This document shows, piece after piece, positions 7,242 through 29,546 of a stretch of DNA of 64,000 nt (its first letter is position 1; the number at the start of each line of letters is the position of its first letter). A program made the translations under genes and the position numbers. The stretch comes from a virus (lineage: Duplodnaviria; Heunggongvirae; Uroviricota; Caudoviricetes), in the IMG/VR virus record IMGVR_UViG_3300017792_000001, positions 200,697-264,696 of that record; one strand, 5' to 3'. Under the pieces are notes generated by a model. It did no database searches, was not told the DNA's origin, and saw only the letters and a program-made list of their open reading frames with translations.

Positions 7242-7326
7242 TTGTACTACTGATGACAGTCGTGATATAATGATCTAGCTGATCGAACAGCAGCGTGATC
7301 AATAGTGGTTACGCAAATAGGTTAGG
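7242..7326 (+). promoter_or_regulatory. Early sigma70-type promoter A with conserved downstream element
   Basis: TTGTAC-18-TATAAT with extended TG; downstream TAGTGGTT-N7-TAGGTTAGG. Confidence 0.8.
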
Positions 7327-7335
7327 AAAACGAAC

Positions 7336-8268
7336 ATGAGCAATTCAACTGCGAAGATCGCGGCGGTAGAAACCCTGTCAGATGCACTCATTGCCTTCGG
7401 CTACCAGAAGGACATCGAAGGCATGTGGGAGCGCAAGGCCAAAGCCACCGTGAAAGCGCATGAAATGGAATTTGGAATTCTCAACAAGGTCCTCGTTGCC
7501 GACGATCTGGTTTCAATCGAGGGTATGTCCCGGGTTTGTTTGTACAACCAGCTGAACAATAGCAGTCAGGTACGCTGGTTGATGCAGACTGATACGCCGA
7601 TGGCTGGCGTCAAGTTCCCTACAGACTACCGTGAGTTCGACGAGTGGAAGTTTGAAACGATCGGCAAGTTCTCGGACGTCATGTACGTTGGGCACAAACA
7701 AAACGAAGGCTGGATGTGTGTTGATATCCAAGACGAAATCGTGGTGGGCTTCACGACCGGTACGTTCAAGCAAATGTTTGAGCGGTTCTGCAACGCTTCG
7801 ATGGTGCAACTGGAGCTGAGCTTCCGCAACTGGATGTGCCAGAAGGGAACAGCCACCCTGAACGACTTGTACACCCAACAAGTTGATCGGCATAAGGCGT
7901 ATGTGAATGAGGAGCGTCGCAAACTGGAGCGTCGTCTCGCTGCCCGCACCAAGCTTGTTGTCGCAGGCTCCGTCCGCATTCACGACAGCATCGAAATGAT
8001 CGCTGAGGCCTGCACCGAAAACCCGCAGAATGTTGCACTGGGTGAGGGCGTCAACTACTACCTCGTGTACATGATCGACCACACGGCTAATCATGCCCAT
8101 GAGGAGAATGCAAACTCGCTCAACGCCAAGAACTGGGAGAACTTCTGCATCGGCCACACCAAGCAGAAGCGCACCAATGAAATCGCCTGGGCGTATCGTA
8201 CTGTAAACAAACACAAAGTGCCGTATGCAATCTGGAACCCGAGCGCAATGCTCTGGGAACTGCTCTAA
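7336..8268 (+). CDS. Hypothetical early protein
   Basis: 310 aa ORF directly after promoter A. Confidence 0.75.
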   Translation: MSNSTAKIAAVETLSDALIAFGYQKDIEGMWERKAKATVKAHEMEFGILNKVLVADDLVSIEGMSRVCLYNQLNNSSQVRWLMQTDTPMAGVKFPTDYREFDEWKFETIGKFSDVMYVGHKQNEGWMCVDIQDEIVVGFTTGTFKQMFERFCNASMVQLELSFRNWMCQKGTATLNDLYTQQVDRHKAYVNEERRKLERRLAARTKLVVAGSVRIHDSIEMIAEACTENPQNVALGEGVNYYLVYMIDHTANHAHEENANSLNAKNWENFCIGHTKQKRTNEIAWAYRTVNKHKVPYAIWNPSAMLWELL

Positions 8269-8316
8269 CTCAAACACGGGGTGGGCGCACAAGCGCCTGC
8301 CTCTCTGGGGATACAA

Positions 8317-9186
8317 ATGACCCGCAAGAAGATCACCCACCCGCCGCGAAATGAAAAGTTGCTGCTGGACCAAATCGCAGCGTGCAAGACACCCGTGCAG
8401 GTCATGAAGCTGTTCGGGTACGGCGTTGAACATCTGCGTGACGATGTTGACTGGGGTTTCAACCCGGTGCAGTCGCCGTGGACGTTCGTGAGCCGTGATT
8501 GGGAAATGCGCTTCGACACCTGCCTCGATGCGACAAACAAACGCCTGCCAGTGTTTCACTGCATCAGCGTGGTCGAGTCGTCGAACAGTGGCTCGATGTT
8601 CACCCTGTTCAAGGCGACCAGCAATCTGCCCAACTTCAACTTCCCGGTGGACAAGAAGTATGCCGCCTCCTGGATCGTTGCAGAGTTTAGCCGGGCAGAC
8701 GGGCGCTTCCAGAACTCGATGATCATCGGCACGTTTGCTGAGGCTCTCAAGGCATTCGTGAAGATCGACCGCAAGAAGATGTCCGCAAGCTACGCTGAGT
8801 TGGTGACTGGCCTTGACCCGAGCAACCTGGGCAAACTGCGCACCAGCCTGCAAGATGCAATGCTGGACGAGATTGACGAGGCTGAGCAACAACACGCAAT
8901 GGTGATCGCGAGCATTCGCAACCGCCACCGCAACCAGCTCAACTACTTCACGGCATTGTTTGACGAGGCTCAGGCAGCAATTGATGCCAAGCAGAAAGCC
9001 CAGTACGCTTTCGAGTTGAACGGCTACCCGCCGAGCAAGATGTACACCACGTACAAGGAAGCACGTCGCTCCCACAGTCGTCGCAACACGCCGAACGTGG
9101 ACTGCGTGATCTACCGCTACGTGAAGAAACAACCCCAAAAGTTTGCGCGGTGGTCTGTCGATGACCGCGTGTGGATTATCCTCTGA
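8317..9186 (+). CDS. Hypothetical early protein, C-terminus paralogous to 7336..8268
   Basis: Shared YRxVxK..[YF]AxW.....W..L terminus; ATG 8317 preferred over GTG 8281. Confidence 0.7.
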   Translation: MTRKKITHPPRNEKLLLDQIAACKTPVQVMKLFGYGVEHLRDDVDWGFNPVQSPWTFVSRDWEMRFDTCLDATNKRLPVFHCISVVESSNSGSMFTLFKATSNLPNFNFPVDKKYAASWIVAEFSRADGRFQNSMIIGTFAEALKAFVKIDRKKMSASYAELVTGLDPSNLGKLRTSLQDAMLDEIDEAEQQHAMVIASIRNRHRNQLNYFTALFDEAQAAIDAKQKAQYAFELNGYPPSKMYTTYKEARRSHSRRNTPNVDCVIYRYVKKQPQKFARWSVDDRVWIIL

Positions 9187-9194
9187 GCACGAAC

Positions 9195-9509
9195 ATGACC
9201 AGCAAGAAAGAAGTATCGAACGACGAACAAGATTGGGGTGACTGCAACACAACCAGTATCGACGATCAGGCGACAACGCTTGGTGAGCAAAAGTTTTGCT
9301 GCCACCGCATGTTCTTCCTGGCGTACCTGATGATCACCCTGATAGTTTTTGGTTACATCACGCAACGCACCGAACATCTGAGCGGCGACGCTCTGTCTGC
9401 ATACTGGACTGGCGGCCTGCTGTGCTACGTCGCTGTCATGGCTTGCGGTATGTTACTCCACGCACTTGCAATCTTCGACCTAACCGTCAATCATTATACC
9501 AAGGACTGA
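9195..9509 (+). CDS. Membrane protein (2 predicted TM segments)
   Basis: Two hydrophobic stretches; ACGAACATG start. Confidence 0.65.
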   Translation: MTSKKEVSNDEQDWGDCNTTSIDDQATTLGEQKFCCHRMFFLAYLMITLIVFGYITQRTEHLSGDALSAYWTGGLLCYVAVMACGMLLHALAIFDLTVNHYTKD

Positions 9510-9511
9510 AC

Positions 9512-9961
9512 ATGAAACGCATTCTGCTCGCTCTCGCTGTGATCGCATCCACTGGCTGCCACGCTGCTATCTCGAAGCCAGTGCCGATGCAAACCTCAGG
9601 TCCCGTATCGTATCAAGATTCGGGCATCGAAGAGGCTGTCGTCTGCAAGTCGAAGTCGGACGCCATGACGTATGTGAAGTACGCTGGCGACAATGACACC
9701 GAAGGGTATGTCAAGTTTACCAAGACTCAGATGGCCAAAGGCGCCTGCCAGTTTCTGGGTAACAGCGACGCTATGACCGTGGTTGACCACCAGGTCGTGC
9801 TGACTGATAACGGGCCACTGTTCATCATCAAGTTCACTCAAGGCAAAGCTGTCTGGTGGGCCAGCGCAAACTACTTCCCAGCTTCGTACCCAATGAGCGG
9901 CATGTGGGAAGACGAACTGTCAGGTGAGCCGATTGAGGGCTTACTCGGAGAAGACGAGTGA
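9512..9961 (+). CDS. Exported protein / possible lipoprotein
   Basis: Signal peptide MKRILLALAVIASTGC with lipobox-like STGC; AAGGA RBS. Confidence 0.65.
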   Translation: MKRILLALAVIASTGCHAAISKPVPMQTSGPVSYQDSGIEEAVVCKSKSDAMTYVKYAGDNDTEGYVKFTKTQMAKGACQFLGNSDAMTVVDHQVVLTDNGPLFIIKFTQGKAVWWASANYFPASYPMSGMWEDELSGEPIEGLLGEDE

Positions 9962-10248
9962 GGTTTGTGTGGGTGCTTGTCTTGATGTCGCTTGTTTGCC
10001 AAGCCCCGGCTGCCACATACGTTAAACACAATGGCTTCGCGTGCAAGACTCCAGAAATTTGGATGCAGTACGCGACCGCCATTGATAAGAGCGATGCGAA
10101 GACGATCCGTAATGTCCGTCTCTCGCAGCGCTGTGTTGACCTAGTACCCGGTGAAGTCGAAGTCCTTGAGCGCGTGGAGGACTTCTTGCGGATCAAGGCG
10201 AATGATGGTCGCAAACTCTACATTCCCAAGGTGTACATTCGAGAATGA
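9958..10248 (+). CDS. Exported protein
   Basis: Hydrophobic signal peptide MRFVWVLVLMSLVCQAPA; GTGA overlap with previous gene. Confidence 0.6.
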   Translation: MRFVWVLVLMSLVCQAPAATYVKHNGFACKTPEIWMQYATAIDKSDAKTIRNVRLSQRCVDLVPGEVEVLERVEDFLRIKANDGRKLYIPKVYIRE

Positions 10249-11150
10249 AGACCAAGAAGAAAGAGGAGTTGCTGCTGATATTTGATGGCAGCAACTGCAT
10301 GGCGCGGGCTTTCTTCGCCGTGCCGCAGATGACCACCAGCAAAGGCTTTCACACGAACGCCATCAAGGGTACGATCAACATTGTCACTGCCGTGATTCGT
10401 GAGGCAGCACCCACGCACATTGCGCTGACGATGGACCGGAAGTACCCGACGCACCGTCACAACATCTTCGCGGACTACAAGGGCAATCGCGTCCGTGATC
10501 CCGAGGAACAGGCTCGTCTCGTTCCTCAGCGCAAGCCGCTGTATGACTTGCTCCGGGCCATGGGCATTCGCGTAGTTCACAAAGCAGGCGTGGAGGCTGA
10601 CGACATCGTTGGCACTCTCGCCCGCAAGGCTGCACGTAAAGGCATGCGAGTCATCATCGTGTCGAACGACAAAGACTTTGGCCAGTTGCTGGATGATCCG
10701 CTGATCGAACAGTGGAAGTACATCGACAAGGTTGTTGGCTACAAGAAGGTCAACGTCACGAACTGCGAGGAAGTCTACGGTGTGCCGCCTGCCAGAGTGA
10801 TCGACAAGCTGATGATGGAGGGTGACAAGGTTGACAACATCCCCGGCGTCAAAGGAATTGGCCTTGCCGCAATTCGGAAGCTGATCGCGACGCATAAGCG
10901 GATCGAGAAGGCCGACCTGTCTGTGTTGAACAAGACCCAGCGCGCCACGTTTGAGGCGAGTCGCAAACAACTCAAGCTGACCCGCGAGCTGGTGACCATC
11001 AACTGCGACATCATGCAGATCAACGTGGCGAATCTCAAACCCACAGAGCCGGACGTCAAGTTGATCAACCGTATCTGTAAAGCGTTAGAAGCCCAGCAGA
11101 TCAGAAACACCGTTCTGCGGTATGTGGCAGATCGTCAGAACCGTATCTAA
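10245..11150 (+). CDS. 5'-3' exonuclease / flap endonuclease (PolI N-domain, T4 RNase H or T5 D15 type)
   Basis: IFDGSN, YKGNR, GVEADD, SNDKDF, GDKVDNIPGVKGIG (H3TH). Confidence 0.93.
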   Translation: MKTKKKEELLLIFDGSNCMARAFFAVPQMTTSKGFHTNAIKGTINIVTAVIREAAPTHIALTMDRKYPTHRHNIFADYKGNRVRDPEEQARLVPQRKPLYDLLRAMGIRVVHKAGVEADDIVGTLARKAARKGMRVIIVSNDKDFGQLLDDPLIEQWKYIDKVVGYKKVNVTNCEEVYGVPPARVIDKLMMEGDKVDNIPGVKGIGLAAIRKLIATHKRIEKADLSVLNKTQRATFEASRKQLKLTRELVTINCDIMQINVANLKPTEPDVKLINRICKALEAQQIRNTVLRYVADRQNRI

Positions 11151-11170
11151 AAACATATCCATTAGCGCTA

Positions 11171-11258
11171 TAGACGTGCCCGCTGCGATGTGATATACTA
11201 GCCACGTGTAGCGACCCGAGCTACAACACTATTGGTTACGAACTTAGATAAGGTTAAT
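11171..11258 (+). promoter_or_regulatory. Early sigma70-type promoter B with conserved downstream element
   Basis: TAGACG-17-TATACT with extended TG; hairpin tgtagc/gctaca; TATTGGTT-N7-TAGATAAGGTT. Confidence 0.75.
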
Positions 11259-11264
11259 ACGAAC

Positions 11265-11480
11265 ATGACTACTACCTCCGCTTTCGACCTGAACGACATC
11301 CAGCTTTTCATCAACCTGCGCACCAACGAAGTCACCGCGCAGTACGGCGACATTCGTGGCTCTTACGCTCTGGCAGAGTTTGCAAATGACCACGATGCAC
11401 CGCTCGGCGAAATCTCCATCGTCAGCCTGATGCTTTCGGTGCGTGTGAAGTTTGCACAAGAAGCCATCAAAGTTTCCTGA
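11265..11480 (+). CDS. Small hypothetical early protein
   Basis: ACGAACATG start after promoter B. Confidence 0.6.
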   Translation: MTTTSAFDLNDIQLFINLRTNEVTAQYGDIRGSYALAEFANDHDAPLGEISIVSLMLSVRVKFAQEAIKVS

Positions 11481-11568
11481 TTGCCCAAATTCAGTAGCTC
11501 CTAACCCGAGCTACTCTGTGTGGACAAACTCGTACCACAACTTAATCACCAACATGGAAATACTGAAC

Positions 11569-12018
11569 ATGACCAAGAAAATCGAAGCTGCCCTGTCGTC
11601 TGTTAAAGTCGTTCGTCAGGAGCTGGGTGCTGCTACTCGTTCCGTGGTCAAGGCCGCCAAGAACGTTGCAACGCTGGAAGCCAAGCTGCTGGCCGCTCAG
11701 CAAGAACTCGACACCGCCGCTACCCGTGCCGAAGACGCCTTGAAGAAAGCACTGGCGACCACCAAGGCTCTCGACACTTCGAAGCTCAAGAAGGTCCCGG
11801 CCGTCAAGCCAGCCACCAAGACCACCGCGAAGCCGCTGCCGAAGCCTGCTGCCAAGGCAACTGCAAAGCCAGTCGCGAAGAAGCCTACCCGTGCTGAAAC
11901 CCGCGCTGCAAACAAACCAGCGGCCAAGCCTGCTGCGAAGCCAGCGGTCAAGAAAGCCCCGGTGAAAGCTGCTGGCAAGAAGTCCGTAGTTGCGATCAAG
12001 AACAGCGCCGCTATCTAA
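11569..12018 (+). CDS. Histone H1/AlgP-like DNA-binding protein (coiled coil + KPAAK repeats)
   Basis: N-terminal coiled coil then KPAAK/KPVAK repeats. Confidence 0.75.
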   Translation: MTKKIEAALSSVKVVRQELGAATRSVVKAAKNVATLEAKLLAAQQELDTAATRAEDALKKALATTKALDTSKLKKVPAVKPATKTTAKPLPKPAAKATAKPVAKKPTRAETRAANKPAAKPAAKPAVKKAPVKAAGKKSVVAIKNSAAI

Positions 12019-12038
12019 CAGCGCCGCGTAGTTTGCAT

Positions 12039-12066
12039 GGGCGGTGGGAGCACTGCCGCCCTTTGT
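12039..12066 (+). terminator. Terminator-like hairpin
   Basis: gggcggtgg / ctgccgccc stem followed by tttgt. Confidence 0.6.
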
Positions 12067-12082
12067 CTAAGGGGTTAAGAAG

Positions 12083-12334
12083 ATGGTCAAGGAATTTATA
12101 CCGGAGGGTTTCAAGCCGGATGAAGAAGCGGAAGAACTCGCCAGACAGATCCGTCTGCTAGAAGCGAGTCTGTCCCGAACGACCACAAAGCCGACTCGCA
12201 GTCGTGCAGTGCAGCCGGAGCCAGTTGAAGCACCGGAGCCCTACGCAAACAAAGCCAGCATCTTCCTTGACGAAGACGAAGGTGCTCGCAGATTGAACGG
12301 TGGCCCGCGCGGTCGCGTCCATTCTCGTTTCTGA
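12083..12334 (+). CDS. Hypothetical protein
   Basis: 83 aa ORF. Confidence 0.55.
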   Translation: MVKEFIPEGFKPDEEAEELARQIRLLEASLSRTTTKPTRSRAVQPEPVEAPEPYANKASIFLDEDEGARRLNGGPRGRVHSRF

Positions 12335-12392
12335 CAATCACATGCGCAATTAACGGACCTCAGGGTCCGTTAGCCATTTCTCGGGTCTAAAA

Positions 12393-12641
12393 ATGAACGC
12401 ATTGATAATCTGGTGGTGCAGCGTCAAGCCCAAAGCGAAGTGGTTGATCGTGTGGGCGTTCCTGTATTTCAACGTCTGTATGCTCCTCCTGTTCTTCGAC
12501 TTGTTTGAAGACTGGAACTGGCTGAACCAGTTTGTGTGGATCTTCATCAGCTCCATTCCGCTGTGGAACAAACGCCTCGCTACGTGGCTCAACATGAACC
12601 CGAAGTTATCCGACTGGTTCAAACGCAAACTAACCAAGTAA
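12393..12641 (+). CDS. Small Trp-rich membrane protein
   Basis: Two hydrophobic aromatic-rich segments. Confidence 0.6.
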   Translation: MNALIIWWCSVKPKAKWLIVWAFLYFNVCMLLLFFDLFEDWNWLNQFVWIFISSIPLWNKRLATWLNMNPKLSDWFKRKLTK

Positions 12642-12658
12642 CAAAAGGAACCTCGAAC

Positions 12659-12976
12659 ATGCGCAAGTTACTCATTGCACTGGCAGTTGTGGCACAGCCT
12701 GCATTTGCCGACAGCTACCTGATGTCGTTTACCCCGGAAGGCCACGCTCAGTTGATCATGGAGCACGACCTGGCCCTCCCGCCGAATCCCCTTATGCGTG
12801 GCCCGCTTTTCTGGTCGTTGATCGACGACGAGAACCCGCATGTTTCTGAGTACATCGGAGCCGCAGAGACGGTCGTTGTTATGTCCGATGCCAAGCGTGA
12901 GAAACTCCGAGCGCAGTGCGAACATATCGACGATGCCTGCGTTGATTCCATCCTCAGTGAACAAGGCCATGACTAA
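12659..12976 (+). CDS. Exported protein
   Basis: Signal peptide MRKLLIALAVVAQPAFA; AAGGA RBS. Confidence 0.65.
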   Translation: MRKLLIALAVVAQPAFADSYLMSFTPEGHAQLIMEHDLALPPNPLMRGPLFWSLIDDENPHVSEYIGAAETVVVMSDAKREKLRAQCEHIDDACVDSILSEQGHD

Positions 12977-13343
12977 GCAAAGATTGACCAAGAAGCAGCA
13001 AACGGCTTTGCGTCAAGCGAAGCTACAAGAACAGGCCGCACTCCAGAAGGCTTTGAAGCAGCGACCAAAGATCGACAACCGAGAGATATCGGTGAATGCC
13101 ATACCACGTTATGATTACGAAGATCGAGTAGGCATCCGTAGCTTGCCCTCAGCGCCAGAAGCGCCGGAAGTATTGCACGCGAAGCCTGTCTACGAGAAAG
13201 GTTCTGAGTTGGCTGTGAGGGAGCAGTTGGCTCAGGAAGAAAAGGACAGAAAGCGAAAACGCCTTGCCCCGCTGTACAACAAGGGCCCGGTGCAGTACAT
13301 CACCGACGACGCCGACCCGAAAGAACTCGGTCGCAAACTCTGA
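12969..13343 (+). CDS. Conserved phage protein resembling T4 gp61.1
   Basis: C-terminal APLYNKGPVQYIT..LGRK motif as remembered for that family. Confidence 0.6.
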   Translation: MTKQRLTKKQQTALRQAKLQEQAALQKALKQRPKIDNREISVNAIPRYDYEDRVGIRSLPSAPEAPEVLHAKPVYEKGSELAVREQLAQEEKDRKRKRLAPLYNKGPVQYITDDADPKELGRKL

Positions 13344-13352
13344 GAGGCAAAC

Positions 13353-14216
13353 ATGAACGCCATCATCCGCAGTAACGAGCACTTGATGCCCGCGCTGACC
13401 TTCGCAAACAAACAGATCGACCAATTCGGTGCGCGCAAGCGGCTTACCTTCTCCGAACTGGCGCTGATCGTGGAAGCGATCTACACCATGTGCAACCTCA
13501 GCGGCAGCCTCGTGCTGTCGTATGCGTTGCTCTCCCGTGCCAAGTGCCTGGTGCTGGACGAACACGGTTACTTCACGCTGCATGACGTGAACGACACCAA
13601 GTTCGACCACATCATCCCAAACTTCTTGCGTGACCTGCCGTTCTACATGGACAACAAGGTCAAGTACGAGCAGCTTGACACGTTCGTTCCCCTATTCACG
13701 CTTGGCCTTGGCGCAAACACCGTTGTGTTGAAGAACACGATCTGGGTACGCAGCCGCGAGCGTAACGATATTCACCTGCCGATTCTCCTGGGGAGTCAGA
13801 TGGTGGATGCTTCACAAGTGGATAACAAGCACGCCAGCGTTGTGGTGCCGATTGTTCACTTGGTCAAAGATGCGCCTGTTTGTTCCTTGTTGCAACTTCC
13901 TGCTGCGACGTTCGACAAGGTGTACGCATCGACGGTACGGGCACAGCGCACAAGCCATAGCGGCTTCGCGTTGAGTCTGCGTAAAGCGAGTGGCCGCCAC
14001 AGCCATCCGGATGTGTTTATCAAACCTCTGGATCAACGACTGTCGCGGGACAATGTGCATAACGTTGTCGGTCAGTTCTGGCCAAACTATGAGGCATATG
14101 CCAAGAAGATTGCGGCGCAGAATGCAAACATGCCCAAGCATGTGATCGAAGCGGTGACGCACACGCTGATCAACACTCAAAAGAAGCCGGGCGAGTTGTC
14201 TGCGCTGATCTTTTGA
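13353..14216 (+). CDS. Hypothetical protein
   Basis: 287 aa ORF, GAGG RBS. Confidence 0.7.
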   Translation: MNAIIRSNEHLMPALTFANKQIDQFGARKRLTFSELALIVEAIYTMCNLSGSLVLSYALLSRAKCLVLDEHGYFTLHDVNDTKFDHIIPNFLRDLPFYMDNKVKYEQLDTFVPLFTLGLGANTVVLKNTIWVRSRERNDIHLPILLGSQMVDASQVDNKHASVVVPIVHLVKDAPVCSLLQLPAATFDKVYASTVRAQRTSHSGFALSLRKASGRHSHPDVFIKPLDQRLSRDNVHNVVGQFWPNYEAYAKKIAAQNANMPKHVIEAVTHTLINTQKKPGELSALIF

Positions 14217-14223
14217 CTACCAC

Positions 14224-14313
14224 TTGTGCTCATTTAGCAGCATGTGATATGATGCCGTCGTGAGCGACAAGCAGCTTCAAACATAATGGTTCTAAACTTA
14301 GATCAGGTTAATT
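14224..14313 (+). promoter_or_regulatory. Early sigma70-type promoter C with conserved downstream element
   Basis: TTGTGC-18-TATGAT with extended TG; TAATGGTT-N7-TAGATCAGGTT. Confidence 0.75.
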
Positions 14314-14327
14314 GAGGAAGTACGAAA

Positions 14328-15692
14328 ATGGCTATCGACAAAGCGACGTTGAAAGAAATGGTTGGCAAGCGTATCACCATCGACGGTACCAAACACCGTG
14401 TGGAAAAAGTGGTCATGAAGACCGGCCTGATCGTCACACGCGATGGCGCAGAGGCTCTGGCGGAGGGCGTCTACAAGAAAGGTCCTGGGTTCTTCTATGA
14501 CTCGCCGAAGGGCAGCAAGAAGAAGGCTGCAGCCGCTGCCGAACCCGTGAAAGAAACTGCGCGTGCTCGCCGTGCCCGTGAGAAGGCAGAGGCTGAGCCA
14601 GTAGAGACAGCCCGCGAGAAACGTGCGCGTCTCAAGCGTGAAGCCGAGGAAGAGGAGGAACCAGCCAAGCCTGCGCGTGCTCGCCGTCGTTCCTCTGACA
14701 AGACTCCTGGCGCCAAGGGTGACGGTGCCAAAGTCCCTGGCAAGAAAAAGAAATTGTTTGAAGCGTTCACCCAGGCCATTGCCGAGCGTGTCAGTCAAGA
14801 GTCCTACGATCTGCTGGCCGAAGCGTACGGTGATCGTGGTGACTACGCCATCACGCCTGTTGCTGTCGGCGCCGCGTTCGACAATGACGCGCTCAAAATC
14901 ACCATCACCGTGATGTCGGCGGGCAAGTCGGCGAAGGAAATCAAAGCCTACATCCGCGACCATCGCGAGGCTACAGACATCGCCAGTGACGACGAGGAAG
15001 ATGATGACCTCGACGATGATGATCTGGAAGACGATGACAGCGAAGACGAGGACCTGGAGGATGACGACAGCCTCGAAGACGAGGAAGATGACGAGGAGGA
15101 CGATGATGACTCCGAAGACGCCTTCGAGGCTGCGTTGAACGAACTCTCCTTGAAGGATCTGCGCAAGATCGCCAAGGACATGGAAATCGACGACTACAAG
15201 GACTTCTCCAAGGAAGACCTGGCACAAGAACTGTCCGAGTACGAAGAATCGGATGTCCGTGAATCGGCAGCCACTGCCGGCGTAACACTTGGCGATGGCG
15301 ACGAGGAAGACGATGATGCAGAAGATGACGATGACGATGGATCGGAAGACGATGCCGACGACGAAGAACAGGAAGAAGCGGCTACTGTCGAAGACCTGGT
15401 GGGCGAGGTACTGGAAGTAGCACCAGACCTGAAAGCCAAGTCGGTCACCAAGTTTGTTGAAGCGTTCCTCGCCAACGACGAGTGCCAAGAGAAGTTTGAC
15501 GGCGAACTCGTACCTGGCCGTACCCAGCTGCAAGAGAAGGGCAACAAGGGCCCTGAAATGTTGCTGCTCGGTTACGACGAAGCCAACGAAGTGATCAAGC
15601 TGCTGAACATCAGCACCGGCAAGACTCGCAGCAAGACCATCAGCGAAGTCGTCCACATGGAAATCCTGGAAGCGGCTGACGACGCCGAGTAA
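14328..15692 (+). CDS. Multidomain acidic protein with Rho-N/HeH-like nucleic-acid-binding motif
   Basis: LNELSLKDLRKIAKDMEI...SKEDLAQEL between two D/E tracts; R/K-rich segment. Confidence 0.65.
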   Translation: MAIDKATLKEMVGKRITIDGTKHRVEKVVMKTGLIVTRDGAEALAEGVYKKGPGFFYDSPKGSKKKAAAAAEPVKETARARRAREKAEAEPVETAREKRARLKREAEEEEEPAKPARARRRSSDKTPGAKGDGAKVPGKKKKLFEAFTQAIAERVSQESYDLLAEAYGDRGDYAITPVAVGAAFDNDALKITITVMSAGKSAKEIKAYIRDHREATDIASDDEEDDDLDDDDLEDDDSEDEDLEDDDSLEDEEDDEEDDDDSEDAFEAALNELSLKDLRKIAKDMEIDDYKDFSKEDLAQELSEYEESDVRESAATAGVTLGDGDEEDDDAEDDDDDGSEDDADDEEQEEAATVEDLVGEVLEVAPDLKAKSVTKFVEAFLANDECQEKFDGELVPGRTQLQEKGNKGPEMLLLGYDEANEVIKLLNISTGKTRSKTISEVVHMEILEAADDAE

Positions 15693-16222: not shown

Positions 16223-16227
16223 TTGTC

Positions 16228-21191: not shown

Positions 21192-21201
21192 GGAGTCCGT
21201 C

Positions 21202-22306: not shown

Positions 22307-22312
22307 CGTAAC

Positions 22313-23029
22313 ATGGATATCTACCCAATGCGAAATTTCTACAGCTGCGGCTGCTACGTCGCAGATGATGTGCCGGTCATCAGTCGCTGCGGGGAACACA
22401 ACGGCTTCGTGATCTGCCGAACCAACTGTCGCGTTACAAACCCACGTCAGTTGATCATTGGTAAGCGCAAGCGGTTGAAGATCATCCATCACAACCTGTA
22501 TGACGTGCTGTCGATGTTGAAGCAACCCGTGGATCTGGTGTTCGCATACCCAGAGCACGACCTGTTCATGATGCCGCACATGCTCACACCGTTCGGTTTC
22601 AGGAATAGCCGTGTCGAGGTGTTCAAACACGTTGCACGCCTGCTCAAGCCCGATGGCAAGGCAGTTTTCTTGATCGACCCAATCGACCTAGCGACTGTGT
22701 TGTACCAGGCCAAGCTGCGCAAGTTTGAAGTGCATACGCGCTTCTTTCCAGTGGTCATTCGACCTGAGCCACTTCGGTGGAGTAAGTCGCTTGAGAAACA
22801 CAAGGTCTATAAAATTGCCGTGGGGTTAAACACTGGACCCCTTCCTCAGCTCCGTCTTGACGACCTCACGCCGTTCTTTGATGCGCTGAACGTTCCAGAC
22901 GCGGGCAGGATATTGGACCTTTCCTGTATTCACATCGGTGCTGTCAAGAAGGCAAGACCGAATTCGAAAATTGTAGGGATATGCGAAGATGCAAACCGTT
23001 ACCGAAAATTCATTGAAGCCAACAGTTGA
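22313..23029 (+). CDS. Degenerate N6A/N4C DNA methyltransferase-like protein
   Basis: VDLVFAYPEH (cf. VDLIxxDPPY), RLLKPDGKAVF, GRILDLSC (cf. VLDPFxG); Cys-rich N-terminus. Confidence 0.5.
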   Translation: MDIYPMRNFYSCGCYVADDVPVISRCGEHNGFVICRTNCRVTNPRQLIIGKRKRLKIIHHNLYDVLSMLKQPVDLVFAYPEHDLFMMPHMLTPFGFRNSRVEVFKHVARLLKPDGKAVFLIDPIDLATVLYQAKLRKFEVHTRFFPVVIRPEPLRWSKSLEKHKVYKIAVGLNTGPLPQLRLDDLTPFFDALNVPDAGRILDLSCIHIGAVKKARPNSKIVGICEDANRYRKFIEANS

Positions 23030-23810
23030 ACAGACAGCCCTGTTGTGGGAATTGGTGCTACCCGATCCAGCTTTCGACGAAGCTGTAGAGCGCTGCATCG
23101 CCAAAGGCCGTGAAGACCTGGCGCTGTACGAAGGCACCAAGACCTACGCATACCAGATGACGCTGTGCGTGATCACCTCGATTTTCAACGAAGCCATCAA
23201 GCTCGTTCACTTCGACGGTGAGTTGCTGCACATCTTCATGAAGAACAAACTGCCGCCGAACCACATCATGTTGCTCAAGCGCCTGTTTGACTCCAAGATG
23301 TGGCTGCCTGACAAGGTGCTGCACGACATTCTCGGTGGCGAGCAAGCCCTGTTCTCTGTGCGCGAACAAGTAGGTGACGACGTACTCGAAACGACCTACA
23401 CAGGGCTCACGTCCTACGAAGGTCCAACCGACTACACCGAAATCAAGGATCTGCTGATCGCTGCCAACGTCCTGGACAACCACAACACGGTTGCTCTTGT
23501 GTACGAAGTCGGCGGTCTGCGTGAAACACCGTACGAAAATGCTCGGTACGACAACCTGACCTCGCGGTTCATTGGCGGTACAGAACGGTTGATCGACACC
23601 TTGATGTTTGCCCGTGAACTCCAGGGTGATCCCTTAAAGCGTAAAGCAGTTGTAGCAGAGGCTGAACGTTACTTCGCCGCGACGAAGTTTAAGGTAGTCC
23701 CAAAGCAAACTACCCAGATGAAGCTCGACGATGCGCGTAAAGAGGCGAAAGAAGCCGCGAAGCCATTCAAGACGCTCAAGAAGATGAAGAAGGCTGCCAA
23801 GGCCAAGTAG
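22989..23810 (+). CDS. Hypothetical protein
   Basis: 273 aa ORF with Lys-rich C-terminus. Confidence 0.7.
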   Translation: MQTVTENSLKPTVEQTALLWELVLPDPAFDEAVERCIAKGREDLALYEGTKTYAYQMTLCVITSIFNEAIKLVHFDGELLHIFMKNKLPPNHIMLLKRLFDSKMWLPDKVLHDILGGEQALFSVREQVGDDVLETTYTGLTSYEGPTDYTEIKDLLIAANVLDNHNTVALVYEVGGLRETPYENARYDNLTSRFIGGTERLIDTLMFARELQGDPLKRKAVVAEAERYFAATKFKVVPKQTTQMKLDDARKEAKEAAKPFKTLKKMKKAAKAK

Positions 23811-23819
23811 AGGATCCCA

Positions 23820-24476
23820 ATGGCGAAGAAGCCCTACAAAGGCATCACAAAAAGCCGCAGCAACACCAGCGGCCGTAAGTCTGCTGCAAAGCGTGAAGCT
23901 GAGAAAACGAAGGAACGCATGACGGAGCGCAAAGCCGTTCTGCATACGTCGAAGCGTAGCGGCAAGGAGCGACTCGCCAAAGGTGTTCCCTACAAACTGA
24001 AACGTCTGGAGGCAATGCCTGTACGGCAGCTTCCAGCGACAGCAGCCAATCAGAAAGGGCGCACGCTGCGTCAACTCATTCGTGGCACACCGAAGCTGTT
24101 CATCAACAACGCGGTGGACGTTGAAGCCAAGAAGATTGAGCGCAAGAAGACCAAGACCGGACGCCCCGTCATTATGGGGCAGATGGTTACTTGGGACCCG
24201 TGGCGTAAAGACCGTGTGCGCCGTGTGCATGATGCGTACATCATCGGTCTCGACGATGACCCAGACAAGCCGATCAACCGCCACCAGAAAGTCTTGGTGC
24301 AATGTTCGTGCGAGAACTTCGTCTACGTCTGGGAGTATGCGAATGCCACGGTTGGTGCGAGTCGCCTGATCTACTCGAACGGTGAGCCACCAAACTTCAC
24401 GAACCCGAAGCTCGCTGTTGGTCTATGCAAGCACTTGATCGCGCTCGCCAAGATCATCATGGAGAAAGACGTATGA
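23820..24476 (+). CDS. SWIM zinc-finger protein
   Basis: VQCSCENF...GLCKHLIAL (CxC...CxH). Confidence 0.8.
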   Translation: MAKKPYKGITKSRSNTSGRKSAAKREAEKTKERMTERKAVLHTSKRSGKERLAKGVPYKLKRLEAMPVRQLPATAANQKGRTLRQLIRGTPKLFINNAVDVEAKKIERKKTKTGRPVIMGQMVTWDPWRKDRVRRVHDAYIIGLDDDPDKPINRHQKVLVQCSCENFVYVWEYANATVGASRLIYSNGEPPNFTNPKLAVGLCKHLIALAKIIMEKDV

Positions 24477-25078
24477 GAACCAACGGTTGTTTGCAGCTGG
24501 ATGTTAGCCAGCAAAGCATCGTGTTCTTTCCGCACTACCAGATCGGCGACTACAGCGACCCTGTGATAATCAGTCATTCGCTGAGCGGCCCGAACGACAA
24601 GGTGATTCTGCTCACAAGCATGGCTCAAGCCCATGAGACATACGGACCCGGATCGTATGAGTACCCACTTGCATTCTGCCTGCGTGAGGCGTTGCGAGCT
24701 GGTGCTCCTGCAATCTGGGCTTTTTCGTCTAGCGAGCCTGACCTGTTTGACGCAATCCGAAGTCTGATCAAAGAGGGAGTCTACCCATTCGCGGCTGACC
24801 TCAAGATCATCTTCGAAGAATTGAATCTGGCTGCGATGAAGTACGTGCCCATTCCGTATGAGCCAGAACCAGAAGTCAACTACAGGTCTGTCTTCGCAAA
24901 CGCGAATGAGAGCCAGCGTCTTGACGCGCAGACAATGTTCACGGCATATCCTGACATTCATCTGCGCAACTACGGTACACCTGGACCCATCGGTCACTCC
25001 CCAGGTCCGAGCAATCCCAAACAAACCAAAGACTACCGCAATATCGGTAAGTCGTCGAACGCAAAGAAGCGGTGGTGA
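24473..25078 (+). CDS. Hypothetical protein
   Basis: ATGA overlap with previous gene; GGAG RBS. Confidence 0.6.
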   Translation: MRTNGCLQLDVSQQSIVFFPHYQIGDYSDPVIISHSLSGPNDKVILLTSMAQAHETYGPGSYEYPLAFCLREALRAGAPAIWAFSSSEPDLFDAIRSLIKEGVYPFAADLKIIFEELNLAAMKYVPIPYEPEPEVNYRSVFANANESQRLDAQTMFTAYPDIHLRNYGTPGPIGHSPGPSNPKQTKDYRNIGKSSNAKKRW

Positions 25079-25081
25079 AGT

Positions 25082-25585
25082 ATGAGCGAACACGTCCAGT
25101 TGCTTGCAAAGAACATCGAAATCGACACGCTGCAAAAGACGGTGGTCAAGCTGAGTCTCGACCTCGCCACCGTTACGCACGAACAAGGGCTGCTCAAGAA
25201 TGCCTACAACCAGCTCAATGAAAACGCCGTGCAGCAAGCGGATCAAATGAGCAAAGCCAACGTTGCTCTGGTGCTGGAGAAGAACGCGGTTGAAGAAGCC
25301 CGCGGCCGTCAGCAAGAACGCATCCAGGAAATGGAAGACGACCTCACTGGGGTGCGCCACGAGAAAGACCGGCACGAAATCATCTACACCCACATCTTCT
25401 CCGAAATCAAGAACGGCAGTTCGATCATCATGCTGCCAGGCCATAAGTCTCTCGGCAAGGTCAAGAAAACCGACCTGCGGATTGAACTGAACTCAGGGCA
25501 CACGCTCTCTGGTATCGTCACGTACATCGACAACCTGTACCAGCAGATCGACAATCCAGAACTTCGGAGATTACTGCGCGCATGA
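25082..25585 (+). CDS. Coiled-coil hypothetical protein
   Basis: Heptad-rich N-terminal half. Confidence 0.65.
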   Translation: MSEHVQLLAKNIEIDTLQKTVVKLSLDLATVTHEQGLLKNAYNQLNENAVQQADQMSKANVALVLEKNAVEEARGRQQERIQEMEDDLTGVRHEKDRHEIIYTHIFSEIKNGSSIIMLPGHKSLGKVKKTDLRIELNSGHTLSGIVTYIDNLYQQIDNPELRRLLRA

Positions 25586-26601
25586 GCATAGACAAGAACC
25601 TCACTGGAGAACAAATCCAGAAGGTCATGGATATGCTGCTGTACAAAGCGCTTGAACCTATCATGCTTCACTCGAATGTGTTTGATGCACAGGTGTCCCA
25701 CATCCTCACGACAGTAACGACAAACCGTAAGCGCAAGTTGTCCAGCGTGCCGCGGGAGTTGCTGACTGAGAACTTGGCCGCTGTGCTCGCACGCAATGAC
25801 GGTGCAACCAAGTTCAAGACGTTTCGTGAATGCCGCATTGAACGCTCCTTCATTCACTGCTTCATCAAGCGGTTTCTGGAGGTCAACCATGAATTTCTGG
25901 ACGTGTATCGTGCGTGGCTGATTGATCCGACCAGCGAGCGCAAGAACCACGTAGACAATCTGGCGTATGTCCACGGCGGGTGTCACAAGCGGGCAGATAT
26001 GTACCGCATCATGACGCACAGCGCAGACTACCTGGACAAGTTCTACGCATTCCGCGCCAGCGTACTCGACAACTACCTGCGTCATTCATCGACCCAGGCC
26101 AAGTCGCACGTCGCTGCAAACTCACACAACCAACTGAGCTTCTCCGACCTCAAGCAATCAATTTTGAAGGCTATGGTCGTCGCTCTCGATAAGTACGACA
26201 GCAGTAAGGGCGCACTCACCACGTACATCAACTGGTGGGTTCTAAATGCCCAGACGTGCAGTGCTGATCACGAATATGGTGTCGCATATACCGTACCTCA
26301 AAGCCAGCGCCGCCGGCTCGCCGAAGGCAAAAGCAATGAGGTTAATTTCAGCGTCTCGCTTGATGCGTTGAAGAAACCGGGTGATGAAGATGACCGCTCG
26401 TTGTACTCGTCCTTGTCGGACGGGCATTTCATGGATGAAGATTTCGAGCGGCTGGAAAGTCAGCAACTGGTGCAGTTGTTAGCCAAGGAAGTCGATAGAG
26501 GTGGAGTCGCCCGATTGACTCTGGACATCGGAGAATTTTTCACCAAAGAAGAACGTGAACTCATGCGCCGTCACACGCAAGAGGAAACTGTTAATAACTA
26601 A
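25582..26601 (+). CDS. Phage RNA polymerase sigma factor (sigma70 region 2-like)
   Basis: DLKQSILKAMVVALDKYDSSKGALTTYINWWV matches region 2.2-2.4 (..AVDKFD...FSTYATWWI); also VSLDA. Confidence 0.8.
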   Translation: MSIDKNLTGEQIQKVMDMLLYKALEPIMLHSNVFDAQVSHILTTVTTNRKRKLSSVPRELLTENLAAVLARNDGATKFKTFRECRIERSFIHCFIKRFLEVNHEFLDVYRAWLIDPTSERKNHVDNLAYVHGGCHKRADMYRIMTHSADYLDKFYAFRASVLDNYLRHSSTQAKSHVAANSHNQLSFSDLKQSILKAMVVALDKYDSSKGALTTYINWWVLNAQTCSADHEYGVAYTVPQSQRRRLAEGKSNEVNFSVSLDALKKPGDEDDRSLYSSLSDGHFMDEDFERLESQQLVQLLAKEVDRGGVARLTLDIGEFFTKEERELMRRHTQEETVNN

Positions 26602-26627
26602 CATATACAAACCAGGAGTCATCAAAC

Positions 26628-27902
26628 ATGAGTGGATTTGGAAACATCCAGCCACGCACAGGTAACAAGGATTCTGTTCGTCTGGAAGAAGTCATTAAGA
26701 TGCACAAATGGCCCGCCGACGAATGGAGCCAAGTGCGTTTCATGCCAGGCAAGATTCTGCCAGTTAAGCGTCACTGGATCAGCATCATCGCAGGCAAAGA
26801 CAAGAAAGAAATCACGATCCCTCGTTATTGCCTGGCGTTCGACAACAACAACGAGAACGAGCCGCGTAAAGACGCGAAGGGCAAGCCGATCAAATGCCCG
26901 TACTGCGACCTGGCTCACGGCCAAGACGCAAGCGCTCGTTACGAGTTCTTCTACCTGGCCAACGCGATCATCCGTGAAGTGCAGGAAGATATGCCTGCTC
27001 GCGCCAAGAAGATCGAGCGCACCAAGGAAGAAAAGAAGACTGGCTTCAAGGACATCAGATCGAAGTCCTGGACCCCGGTAGAAGTTTGTCGTATCACCTC
27101 GACGGTCGCGAACCGCATCAAAGAGCTGGGCGACGGCAACTTCGTCAAGAAGGGTGGCGAGAAGAAAGCCTTCGACGTTACTCACCCGAAATACGGTATC
27201 GACATCCGCGTCAAGTACAAGCCGAAAGCATCCGGCACCGAGAAGTACAGCGCTGACAAAGACGACCGCACTCCGCTGACCGACGACGAGTTGAAGTACC
27301 TGATCTGGCGCCTCGACGAAACCCTGATCGACGTGACCGGCCGCATGGAACCTGCGCAGGCTCTCGAAGACTTCAAGCGCATGGAAGTTGTCGGTGCTGA
27401 CGAAGTTGACGACGACAGCGAAGGCTACAGCCTGGGCGACGACGACGGCAAGAAGAAAAAGAAGAAGGGCGACAAGAAGAAAAAGTCGGCCGCCTTCGAT
27501 GATGACGATGACGATGACGAGCCTAAGAAAGGCAAGAAATCATCCAAGTCCTCGAAGTCTTCCAAGAAGTCGAAAGAAGATGATGCTCCGAAGAAAAAGA
27601 AAAAGGCCAAGCCTGCTTTCTCTGACGACGATGATGACGACGATGACGAGCCGAAGAAAAGCAAGAAATCTTCCGGCGACAAGAAGTCCAAGTCGAAAGA
27701 CAAGGTGAAGTCGAAGAAATCTTCTTCTGACGACGCACCGAAGAAGAAAAAGAAGGCCAAGAAAGAGGAAGACGAGCCGAAGAAGAAAAAGAAATCTTCT
27801 GACAGCAAGAAGTCCTCGAAGTCTTCCAAGGACAAGAAGGCCGACAAGCCAAGCTCCAAGAAAGGCAAGAAGAAATCTGCCTGGGACGATGACGACGAAT
27901 AA
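26628..27902 (+). CDS. Single-stranded DNA-binding protein (T4 gp32-like) with a very long K/D block tail
   Basis: VRFMP, HW, CPYC, YLANAII, GIDIRVKY core; directly upstream of recA. Confidence 0.7.
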   Translation: MSGFGNIQPRTGNKDSVRLEEVIKMHKWPADEWSQVRFMPGKILPVKRHWISIIAGKDKKEITIPRYCLAFDNNNENEPRKDAKGKPIKCPYCDLAHGQDASARYEFFYLANAIIREVQEDMPARAKKIERTKEEKKTGFKDIRSKSWTPVEVCRITSTVANRIKELGDGNFVKKGGEKKAFDVTHPKYGIDIRVKYKPKASGTEKYSADKDDRTPLTDDELKYLIWRLDETLIDVTGRMEPAQALEDFKRMEVVGADEVDDDSEGYSLGDDDGKKKKKKGDKKKKSAAFDDDDDDDEPKKGKKSSKSSKSSKKSKEDDAPKKKKKAKPAFSDDDDDDDDEPKKSKKSSGDKKSKSKDKVKSKKSSSDDAPKKKKKAKKEEDEPKKKKKSSDSKKSSKSSKDKKADKPSSKKGKKKSAWDDDDE

Positions 27903-27909
27903 GTAGGGA

Positions 27910-27939
27910 GGGTGGGCTTCGGCTCACCCATTCTCGTTT
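27910..27939 (+). terminator. Terminator-like hairpin with UUCG loop
   Basis: gggtgggc-ttcg-gctcaccc followed by attctcgttt; identical hairpin at 49997. Confidence 0.7.
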
Positions 27940-27951
27940 CTGGAGATACGC

Positions 27952-29433
27952 ATGGCTAAGTCGAAAAAGAAGGACGTCGCTGTTATTGACGTCTCGGGAG
28001 ATTCAGTCCCGTCGAAGAAGAAAGGCAAGAAGGGTAAAGCCCTTGCCGAGGTTGCACCGTTCAATCCCTATGCTCACTTGGGCACTGAGATTGACGCGAT
28101 GGAAAAGAAGTTCGGCCTGACGTCGATGGCAGTGAGCGAATCGGAAGATCGCCTGTCCACCGGCCTCCTGTCGATTGACGTGAACCTCGCTGGTGGTCTG
28201 CTGCCGGGTGGCTGGTACACGTTCTTCGGTGGTGAACAGTCGTGTAAGTCCACGCTCGCCACCACAGCAATGGGTTCGATTGCAACTAACGCCACGTTCC
28301 AAGGCATTGGTGCAATGTTCGACTACGAAGGTTCGTTCCAGGCTGACTACGCCGAGAACATCTTCAAGTACATGAACCACGGCAAGCGCATTTCGGTTGA
28401 TAACGTCTTCGGCGTGAAAGACCAGAAGGGTTGGGTTATCCCACCGCGCGTTCGCTACTACGCACCGTCTGTTGGTGAAGACTTCTACAACTGGCTCGCC
28501 AAGCTTGAGAAGACTCTGCCAGACCTGATTCAAGAAGATGGCAAGTTCTACTACATCTTCGAGAACACCAAGGTCAACCAGAAGGCGCTGTCCGGCAAGT
28601 ACGACAAGGACTTCTTCCGTCGTGAAGGTAAGTTCCGTCTGCCTGCCCCGAACGGTATGCCGCAAGCGGTCGTACTCGTTGACTCGTATCCTGCGATGGT
28701 CCCTAAACAGACCGACGACAAGGACGAGGGCGACAAGTCCCTGGGTTCACAAGCCCGTATGCACGCTGCAAACTTGCCGCGTGTGAAAGGCGCAATGCGT
28801 TCGAAGCGGATCATCGTGCTGGGTATCAACCAGTTGCGTGACATCCCGATGGCCATGTACGGCCCGACCGAACAAGAACCTGGCGGTAAAGCGCTGCGCT
28901 TCTACTCCGACTGTCGTTTGAAGATGACTTCGGTCAGCGTTCCCCACGCCAAAGGCCAGTTCGAGGAAGAAGACACAATCTCCGGTGAAGGTGCTGACAA
29001 GTACCGCTACCTGAAGTGCAAGGTGCAGAAGAACAAACTCGGTGGCCCACAAGCCGCTGAAATCTCGCTGCGCATTCGCGTTTCGGACGCCGATGGTAAC
29101 GCCTCCGGTTTCTGCCGGTGCTGGGACGCATACCAGTACCTGAAGATGACTGGGCAACTCGGTGGCAATCGCAAGAAGCTCAAGTTCCTGACTGGCCCGC
29201 TCGAAGGCATCACTGTCTCCTGGCTCCAGTTCAAGGCCCTGATCGACGGCGATGCAGCGATGATCAAGAAAGGCTGCGAGAAGCTGAAAGTGAAACCGTT
29301 CCGCTTGTACGAATGGTGTCGCAAACAGGTTGTCGAGAAGCAAGCCTATCCTCTGCTCAAGGCTGCCATCAAAGCCGAGAACACCAAGTCCAAGCAGCCT
29401 GCGGAAATCGCTGAGGGTGCTGACGAGGAGTGA
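27952..29433 (+). CDS. recA: RecA/UvsX-like recombinase
   Basis: STGLLSIDVNLAGGL, GGEQSCKST, VLVDS, LGSQAR, INQLR, PGGKALRFYSDCRL, KNK. Confidence 0.92.
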   Translation: MAKSKKKDVAVIDVSGDSVPSKKKGKKGKALAEVAPFNPYAHLGTEIDAMEKKFGLTSMAVSESEDRLSTGLLSIDVNLAGGLLPGGWYTFFGGEQSCKSTLATTAMGSIATNATFQGIGAMFDYEGSFQADYAENIFKYMNHGKRISVDNVFGVKDQKGWVIPPRVRYYAPSVGEDFYNWLAKLEKTLPDLIQEDGKFYYIFENTKVNQKALSGKYDKDFFRREGKFRLPAPNGMPQAVVLVDSYPAMVPKQTDDKDEGDKSLGSQARMHAANLPRVKGAMRSKRIIVLGINQLRDIPMAMYGPTEQEPGGKALRFYSDCRLKMTSVSVPHAKGQFEEEDTISGEGADKYRYLKCKVQKNKLGGPQAAEISLRIRVSDADGNASGFCRCWDAYQYLKMTGQLGGNRKKLKFLTGPLEGITVSWLQFKALIDGDAAMIKKGCEKLKVKPFRLYEWCRKQVVEKQAYPLLKAAIKAENTKSKQPAEIAEGADEE

Positions 29434-29461
29434 TCTGCTCGCTGCCTGATTTTTGATCAAC

Positions 29462-29546
29462 TTGACTTCGATTTTGTGATGTGATACAATGACTTGCTGA
29501 TCGAAGTCGAGCTTGATTCATATTGGTTACGCGATTAGGTTAGGTT
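29462..29546 (+). promoter_or_regulatory. Early sigma70-type promoter D with conserved downstream element
   Basis: TTGACT-17-TACAAT with extended TG; TATTGGTT-N7-TAGGTTAGGTT. Confidence 0.8.

Follow-up and report, generated by a model that had tools for sequence, protein, structure and literature searches.

The window analysed here is a stretch of 64,000 nucleotides (bases 200697-264696) of a single viral contig of 277,601 bp with 53.6% G+C, and it contains four promoters with an extended -10 element, each followed at a fixed distance by a conserved sequence that we call the box. We found that the box belongs to a promoter cassette present eight times in this genome, and that most cassettes carry a second, inverted copy of the box upstream of the -35 region, with the promoter between the two. 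The arrangement of these sequences suggests, with roughly even odds in our estimate (probability about 0.5), that the boxes are paired DNA sites for a phage-specific factor controlling early promoters. Both the early class and the sigma70 dependence of the cassette promoters are what we infer from their sequence. The phage is a PaBG-like jumbo phage: among named phages it is closest to Pseudomonas phage PaBG (Baikalvirus, 258 kb; terminase identity 77%), which has P. aeruginosa PAO1 as its host, followed by Lu11 (~50% identity).

A preliminary description of the window had placed extended -10 promoters at 7266, 11194, 14248 and 29485 (cassettes A, B, C and D, respectively), and all four are present at these positions and conform to the extended -10 pattern (TGn followed by TAnnnT). 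The motif reported downstream of them, TAnTGGTT-N7-TAGRTnAGG, is matched exactly at 7303, 11230, 14284 and 29521, always on the + strand; with up to two mismatches allowed there are 6 matches in the window versus 0.06 expected, a count that 100 shuffles never attained. The fixed spacing of the motif likewise holds, although the distance of 34-35 nt given for it was slightly off, the correct figure being 36-37 nt from the start of the -10 hexamer (from the end of the hexamer to the start of the motif, 31, 30, 30 and 30 nt in A, B, C and D). Two inverted copies of the motif, in A and B, and four cassettes beyond the window had been overlooked. All four promoters of the window are intergenic and lie 67-218 nt before a + strand gene, and their -35 hexamers match the consensus at only 3-5 of 6 positions.

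Scanning of the whole 277.6-kb genome for the motif revealed eight cassettes of ~115 bp with 14 boxes in total. The box comprises 25 bp (TA..GGTTA......TAG.T.AGGT); its right copy lies at about +26..+49 relative to the promoter, at genome positions 19866, 24490, 42360, 54472, 207999, 211926, 214980 and 230217, while the inverted left copy (about -66..-43) is found 89-91 bp upstream in six of the eight cassettes, including two of the four in the window (A and B). To assess the specificity of the box, a position weight matrix (PWM) trained solely on boxes from PaBG and from metagenomic relatives was run on this genome. It reported exactly 14 sites with scores of 24-36.5 bits, all within the eight cassettes; the next best site scored 13.7 bits and shuffled genomes reached 12-16 bits. 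Conversely, 7 of the 12 intergenic TGnTAnnnT sites of the genome are cassette promoters, and the eighth cassette has GTGTATAAT instead. From the exclusivity of the PWM matches and this overlap it follows that the boxes are integral to essentially the whole class of host-type promoters of this phage.

PaBG has nine cassettes, of which seven carry both boxes, and each of the four cassettes of the window has a positional orthologue there, while the flanking proteins are only 40-84% identical. Scans of IMG/VR with the exact pattern identified further cassettes in PaBG-like phages (about a dozen contigs), with no convincing match outside them; when IMG/VR was scanned again with an inverted-pair pattern, 88 stretches were returned, of which the real ones came only from PaBG-like lineages that were already known. 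Lu11 has neither boxes nor cassettes. In 596 Gbp of bacterial genomes the exact pattern of the box was matched only twice, which, together with its absence from Lu11, led us to reject the possibility that the box is a site of a host regulon; since the box is absent from bacteria, the factor reading it would probably be encoded by the phage.

Comparison of ~32 distinct cassettes from this phage, PaBG and several metagenomic lineages shows that both boxes (the left one read as its reverse complement) share one information profile, TA..GGTTA(y)g....TAG.T.AGGT, with T1, A2, G5, G6, T7, T8, A9, T16, A17, G18, T20, A22, G23, G24 and T25 invariant in both orientations. In the 24 two-armed cassettes the left box is 29-30 nt from the -10 hexamer and the right box 29-32 nt from it, with 89-91 bp from arm to arm, so that the pair is mirror-symmetric about the hexamer. 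The TG of the extended -10 element is retained in 30 of 32 cassettes. Between orthologues, by contrast, the sequence enclosed by the boxes is almost wholly different, and the leaders as well as the region upstream of the -35 hexamer have diverged beyond recognition.

A typical cassette thus consists, in this order, of an optional terminator, the left box, a -35-like hexamer, TGnTAnnnT, a variable leader that frequently forms a hairpin, the right box, and a Shine-Dalgarno sequence (SD) with the start codon. Between the right box and the start codon there are 3 to more than 40 nt, so that the position of the box is tied to the promoter and not to the start codon. For about half of the cassettes no plausible SD exists other than the AGG(T) of the right box, and the others have a separate SD of the GGAG type 10-35 nt beyond the box.

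The features of the four cassettes in the window are as follows (bits refer to the PWM described above):
Cassette A, 7163..7192, + strand: intrinsic-terminator-like hairpin with a T-rich tail (stem AGCCCGGC/GTCGGGCT, loop CATTGC, tail TTGTCGTT), which follows a small open reading frame (6996-7157) and has an equivalent in the PaBG orthologue
Cassette A, 7212..7235, - strand: left box, inverted copy at about -66..-43 (28.7 bits)
Cassette A, 7242..7247, + strand: -35-like hexamer TTGTAC, 18-bp spacer
Cassette A, 7249-7260: small palindrome ACTGATGACAGT in the spacer
Cassette A, 7263..7271, + strand: extended -10 element GTGATATAAT / TGATATAAT (hexamer 7266-7271), with a predicted transcription start near 7278
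Cassette A, 7278..7291, + strand: short leader hairpin GCTG-ATCGAA-CAGC (dG -4.8, z -1.0)
Cassette A, 7303..7326, + strand: right box at about +26..+49 (29.6 bits), the 3' AGGA of which is likely the SD of the gene starting at 7336
Cassette A, 7336..8268, + strand: first gene, 310 aa, without a family match
Cassette B, 11141..11164, - strand: left box (28.7 bits)
Cassette B, 11171..11176, + strand: -35-like hexamer TAGACG, 17-bp spacer
Cassette B, 11191..11199, + strand: extended -10 element GTGATATACT / TGATATACT (hexamer 11194-11199)
Cassette B, 11207..11225, + strand: leader hairpin TGTAGC-GACCCGA-GCTACA (dG -7.7, z -2.5)
Cassette B, 11230..11253, + strand: right box (35.7 bits)
Cassette B, 11265..11480, + strand: first gene, 71 aa, without a family match
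Cassette C, 14224..14229, + strand: -35-like hexamer TTGTGC, 18-bp spacer
Cassette C, 14245..14253, + strand: extended -10 element GTGATATGAT / TGATATGAT (hexamer 14248-14253)
Cassette C, 14284..14307, + strand: right box (29.5 bits), followed by a separate SD, GAGGAAG, before the ATG at 14328
Cassette C, 14328..15692, + strand: first gene, 454 aa, with a weak Rho_N/HeH-like motif
Cassette D, 29462..29467, + strand: -35 hexamer TTGACT, 17-bp spacer
Cassette D, 29482..29490, + strand: extended -10 element GTGATACAAT / TGATACAAT (hexamer 29485-29490)
Cassette D, 29521..29544, + strand: right box (30.5 bits), in the cassette directly after uvsX (27952-29433)

In cassette B the left box shares sequence with the end of the gene located upstream (10245-11150), comprising its last codons and its stop codon (11148-11150), and is therefore also under coding constraint. 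Cassettes C and D have no left box, nor do the PaBG orthologue of C and the PaBG and metagenomic orthologues of D. The leader words noted in the preliminary description, gctgatcgaa in A and D and agcgac...agct in B and C, are indeed shared; of the leader hairpins it had proposed, that of B stands out and that of A is moderate, while those of C and D are weak. Other proteins encoded in the window include T4-type topoisomerase II subunits, SSB, the large terminase and the portal protein, in addition to UvsX. The region, located inside a ~156 kb block of + strand genes according to our own rough gene calls, shares synteny with PaBG, which extends to the phage sigma-factor gene immediately before ssb and uvsX.

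Three further conserved elements were observed in or next to the cassettes. The spacer between -35 and -10 is conserved (ACTG-N4-CAG(T)-yTATG; 7249-7260 is an example from the window) in about half of the cassettes, in this phage, PaBG and metagenomic phages, which sigma70 promoters do not usually show; concerted evolution may have produced this, or the spacer may act as a third recognition element. A second word, (A)AGTTTGCA, occurs 3' of the right box at 29561-29568 of the window, at genome position 24531 and in about 14 of 31 cassettes in relatives, with an offset from the right box of either ~9 or ~20-22 nt, the difference being about one helical turn. Relative to the SD and the ATG it can precede both, follow both or lie in between, and it contains TTGCAC, the same hexamer as found at the -35 position of cassettes. 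We rejected AGTTTGCA as a general intergenic signal of the genome, as most of its genomic copies are intragenic and it is specific only in the context of a cassette. Finally, the right box of cassette D is followed by a leader of 155-230 nt (29545-29700 in the window; 13690-13898 of the PaBG sequence compared) with blocks conserved between this phage and PaBG, among them GCGCTGCAACCTGAT at 29635-29649, TAATTTA and, ahead of the ATG at 29700, ACAGGGGA. The 52-aa open reading frame 29548-29706 within this leader is not conserved, and Rfam reported no match for the leader, which may be a regulatory leader or contain a second promoter.

Whether the boxes are read as DNA or as RNA can be addressed by comparing the two arms. 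Across related phages the variable positions of the box do not covary: positions 3, 10, 12-15, 19 and 21 are paired in 17-57% of the cassettes, at or below chance, and the number of Watson-Crick pairs between the arms of one cassette (392) is close to that with shuffled partners (385 +/- 4.8; p = 0.085). Mismatches compatible with G-U pairing are not enriched on the + strand (32, versus 51 on the - strand), and the energy of the arm-arm duplex is alike on both strands (-14.9 versus -15.5 kcal/mol). The leader with the right box has no conserved fold (alifold, 31 cassettes), the consensus fold of the whole cassette reaches only -2.8 kcal/mol without a covariance bonus, and searches of Rfam returned no known RNA family at E-values up to 1. 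The lower strand has no TG, and its hexamer begins with C owing to a conserved G after TATAAT, which led us to reject a divergent lower-strand promoter; with no credible promoter on that strand, the left box probably does not act as an antisense RNA leader. A sigma54 promoter or a promoter for a T7-like phage polymerase within the box was rejected by eye, with spacing and key bases that do not fit and no GG-N10-GC. Altogether, an inverted box upstream of the -35 hexamer, with the same invariant bases, mirror-symmetric spacing constant to 1-2 bp, exclusive association with these promoters, and neither covariation nor strand bias, fits best with one factor recognising double-stranded DNA at a site on either side of RNA polymerase. 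Among the three functions put forward in the preliminary description (an antitermination or RNA-protein loading site, an operator for early shut-off and a translation enhancer), the operator is therefore the best fit, the left box being present upstream of the -35 hexamer in 24 of the ~32 cassettes with mirror spacing.

We propose that a sequence-specific DNA-binding factor, specific to the phage, reads the boxes and would thereby control the whole set of genes with host-type (probably early) promoters at once. We favour shut-off over activation: in the most likely mode the factor would act as a repressor that brackets or bridges the promoter, so that the host RNA polymerase is excluded or trapped, and in cassettes that have the right box only it might serve as a roadblock at about +37. 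The switch-off would occur when the phage's own sigma factor and promoters of the AACTGTAAAC type take over; that host-type promoters are switched off as a set is suggested by the fact that the phage has this promoter type of its own and a sigma-like protein.

The AACTGTAAAC-type motif, (A)ACTGT[AGT]AA[ACT], has ~33 sites in the genome on both strands, oriented with the genes and situated 20-45 nt upstream of many start codons. Its sites on the + strand of the window are:
1347, 8200, 19667, 21802, 26587 and 40682, + strand: (A)ACTGT[AGT]AA[ACT]
The annotation "putative middle/late promoter" is given to this word (AAAACTGTAAATGG, AATACTGTAAATAT) in the record of Lu11, and the motif probably represents a class of promoters for a phage sigma factor. 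The product of 25582-26601 in the window, an orthologue of the PaBG "RpoD-like sigma factor", shows a weak match to Sigma70 region 2 (E-value 2e-4) and none to region 4; a region 2 without a region 4 fits a promoter with a single box such as AACTGTAAAC.

Family searches with 28 proteins (mostly encoded downstream of cassettes, or conserved in PaBG and absent from Lu11) identified no sequence-specific DNA-binding domain other than that of an Arc-like protein, the remaining matches being weak ones to Rho_N, H1-like and Sigma70_r2. This protein, an AmrZ-like member of the Arc family of ribbon-helix-helix proteins (100 aa; genome 62878-63180, outside the window; gp184 in PaBG, absent from Lu11), is the sole annotated sequence-specific regulator common to this phage and PaBG, and its gene lies directly behind a AACTGTAAAC motif. 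It is very similar to the ribbon-helix-helix domain of P. aeruginosa AmrZ/AlgZ (3QOQ, E-value 1.9e-20; Pfam Arc, 6.6e-23), and the aligned stretch retains the KFVVRLP strand of AmrZ, in which Lys18, Val20 and Arg22 are the base contacts according to the paper on the AmrZ structure. AmrZ reads GGC/GCC half-sites with an A/T linker (PMC3325190, PMC3946381). Genes for AmrZ-like proteins are found in many viral contigs, including other jumbo phages of the Pseudomonas type; four complete records of jumbo phages with such a gene contain at most a single near-match to the box, and one AmrZ-carrying record that was compared with this phage proved to be unrelated. We therefore rejected the AmrZ-like protein as the specific reader of the box, as GGC/GCC is not among the invariant bases of the box and the gene occurs in phages without boxes. 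With homologues in so many viral contigs, it is probably a captured host regulator.

Several observations weigh against paired DNA sites. The family searches did not identify a protein that binds the box. Cassettes of the types C and D keep the right box alone, also in PaBG and in metagenomic relatives, so that bridging cannot be obligatory. The centres of the two arms are 91 bp apart, which corresponds to ~8.7 helical turns, a non-integral number, and there are no variants with whole-turn spacing. The right box is transcribed and supplies the SD of about half of the cassettes, and hence may have a role at the level of RNA. The energy of the duplex within cassettes is slightly better than with shuffled partners (-14.9 versus -13.3; attained in ~1% of shuffles), and two rare changes of invariant bases, at position 17 in the cassette PaBG 4414 and at position 23 in PaBG 108808, are mirrored in both arms; these two observations could reflect either pairing or conversion from arm to arm. 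Finally, most cassettes fold with their arms paired at minimum energy (mean of 14.8 arm-arm pairs, mean z -2.9), and some have nearly identical arms. We read the near-identical arms and the mirrored changes as the result of occasional arm-to-arm conversion within a DNA palindrome, a reading that leaves the RNA stem alive.

That stem is the main rival explanation, although we consider it unlikely. It holds that both arms pair in read-through transcripts and enclose the promoter, with one of two consequences: either the downstream ribosome-binding site is hidden, so that the gene is translated only from transcripts of its own promoter, as in T4 e, soc and gene 49, or the irregular duplex is cut by RNase III, as happens between the early genes of T7. 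Besides the folds, the duplex energy and the mirrored changes described above, it would account for the coincidence of the 3' end of the right arm with the SD in about half of the cassettes, and is consistent with the lack of a terminator in several cassettes, where the upstream gene continues into the left arm. However, it predicts compensatory maintenance of the arms, and neither covariation at any variable position nor a strand bias was found; what is conserved is the identity of bases and not mere complementarity. Nor does a stem need arms placed at fixed distances and mirror-symmetrically around the -10 hexamer; conservation of the right arm is complete even where the left arm is absent, 5 of 13 cassettes have a terminator immediately before the left arm, and the consensus fold has little stability.

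A role of the arms in recombination appears improbable. Here the cassettes would be portable promoter units comparable to the promoter-early stem-loop (PeSL) cassettes of the T4-type phages RB49 and phi1 (PMC2839356), with the arms acting as homology or recognition sites for recombination or as terminal inverted repeats of a mobile unit. The cassettes do occur in variable regions rich in ORFans; between cassettes 19866 and 24490 lies a six-gene module of 4.6 kb that PaBG lacks, having only one cassette at this position, cassette 54472 has ORFans on either side that were gained relative to PaBG, and the nearly identical arms of some cassettes suggest conversion. On the other hand, the different phages have their cassettes at syntenic, orthologous sites instead of scattered locations, recombination requires stretches of identity and not 14 invariant bases broken by free positions, and so strict a distance from the -10 hexamer suggests a connection with transcription; target-site duplications were not seen by eye, with no systematic search made. 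The module itself (genome 19866-24490), whose products include a lysine-rich, H1-like protein and one carrying a phosphopantetheine-attachment domain, looks like a case of gain or loss of a module bounded by cassettes.

Least probable of all, in our opinion, is a function confined to the RNA leader, in which the transcribed right box would be a single-stranded site for a protein or the ribosome in the 5' untranslated region (loading of antitermination factors, translational repression of the RegA type or enhancement of translation), with the upstream copy otherwise employed, e.g. as an UP-like A-tract. The occurrence of the right box in all ~32 cassettes, always about equally far from the predicted 5' end, its overlap with the SD in about half of them, the 5' hairpin that precedes it in 18 of 32 (z below -1) and the A-rich spacer of the left box at about -56..-51, the location of the distal UP subsite, agree with such a role, but it leaves unexplained why the upstream inverted copy has the same invariant bases and mirror spacing; moreover, the box lies in no conserved structure and matches no Rfam family, and its distance from the start codon varies. 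The nut/put-like antitermination site of the preliminary description is not supported, on the same three grounds of structure, Rfam and upstream copy. Its translation enhancer is a weak option: the use of the 3' AGG(T) as SD in about half of the cassettes speaks for it, and the anchoring of the box to the promoter instead of the start codon against it.

Returning to paired DNA sites, we would tentatively extend the proposal to a new phage protein that reads the mirror-paired 25-bp word as the single master switch of the early programme of PaBG-like phages, although this stronger version is doubtful. Such a protein might clamp the host RNA polymerase between the two boxes, or form an orientation-dependent gate through which polymerase exits the cassette while entry from either side is blocked. 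As extended -10 promoters escape anti-sigma factors that target region 4 of sigma, a dedicated switch acting through the boxes would explain early shut-off. The genome paper of PaBG mentions sigma factors, but not promoters or repeats, and our literature search found no published description of the boxed-promoter architecture. A single, precisely placed word at the whole host-promoter class of one clade defines a putative early regulon and offers a handle for the factor. The organisation and shut-off of early transcription in jumbo phages that lack an RNA polymerase of their own are essentially unstudied, and the same cassettes in PaBG make the proposal testable in a cultured system, on P. aeruginosa PAO1. 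If the factor represented a new family, the cassette would be a compact, portable and switchable promoter module for Pseudomonas.

Operators that bracket a promoter are known from gal, with OE (-60.5) and OI (+53.5) used by GalR together with HU, and from lac, with O1 and O3 92 bp apart. As in the cassettes, one recognition sequence is present upstream and downstream of the footprint of RNA polymerase, ~90-115 bp apart, with a sigma70 promoter in between. The cassettes differ in that their boxes are 25-bp asymmetric sequences, strictly inverted and mirror-symmetric about the -10 hexamer, that nearly all host-type promoters of a lytic jumbo phage have them, and that two types of cassette have the downstream box only. 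In the early-to-late switch of phi29, the phage proteins p4 and p6 bind inverted-repeat sites flanking the early promoters (PMC3100819, PMC1904284). The flanking inverted repeats are common to both systems; the phi29 proteins reshape promoter DNA and shut off early transcription, while a corresponding protein is only putative here, and the phi29 sites (AACTTTTT-15 bp-AAAATGTT) are unrelated in sequence and confined to a single control region, in contrast to the genome-wide cassettes. A homologue of p4 or p6 was not found in this phage, with no search aimed at one. The gal OE/OI and lac O1/O3 pairs, together with p4/p6 of phi29 (PMC3100819), may be regarded as the nearest functional analogues.

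Among RNA-based systems, lambda nut and HK022 put are also conserved elements in the transcribed region just downstream of early promoters, but the cassettes have no conserved structure like boxB or put and no Rfam match, and their inverted copy lies upstream of the promoter, outside the transcript of that promoter. In the T4 genes e (lysozyme), soc and 49 and in I-TevI, a hairpin that sequesters the ribosome-binding site encloses a promoter. The position of the promoter between two halves of an inverted repeat, the downstream half lying over the ribosome-binding site, resembles the cassettes; however, the T4 stems are specific to each gene and maintained by complementarity, whereas here one word serves all cassettes and phages, its variable positions are complementary at the level expected by chance, and the downstream half is not fixed to the start codon.

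In overall organisation the cassettes resemble the PeSL cassettes, which are likewise repeated units of ~100 bp that combine a strong early promoter of the sigma70 type with an inverted repeat and with the SD for the gene that follows, found in variable, ORFan-rich regions where gene modules bounded by cassettes vary between relatives. The PeSL repeat is, however, a compact GC-rich hairpin in or overlapping the promoter that acts as a terminator, while the arms described here are 67 bp apart, lie outside the promoter and are conserved in base identity with no covariation; the hairpin-terminator that defines PeSL is absent, and separate intrinsic terminators precede 5 of 13 cassettes. The bracketed promoter in PeSL-like cassettes would be a new form of a known type of control.

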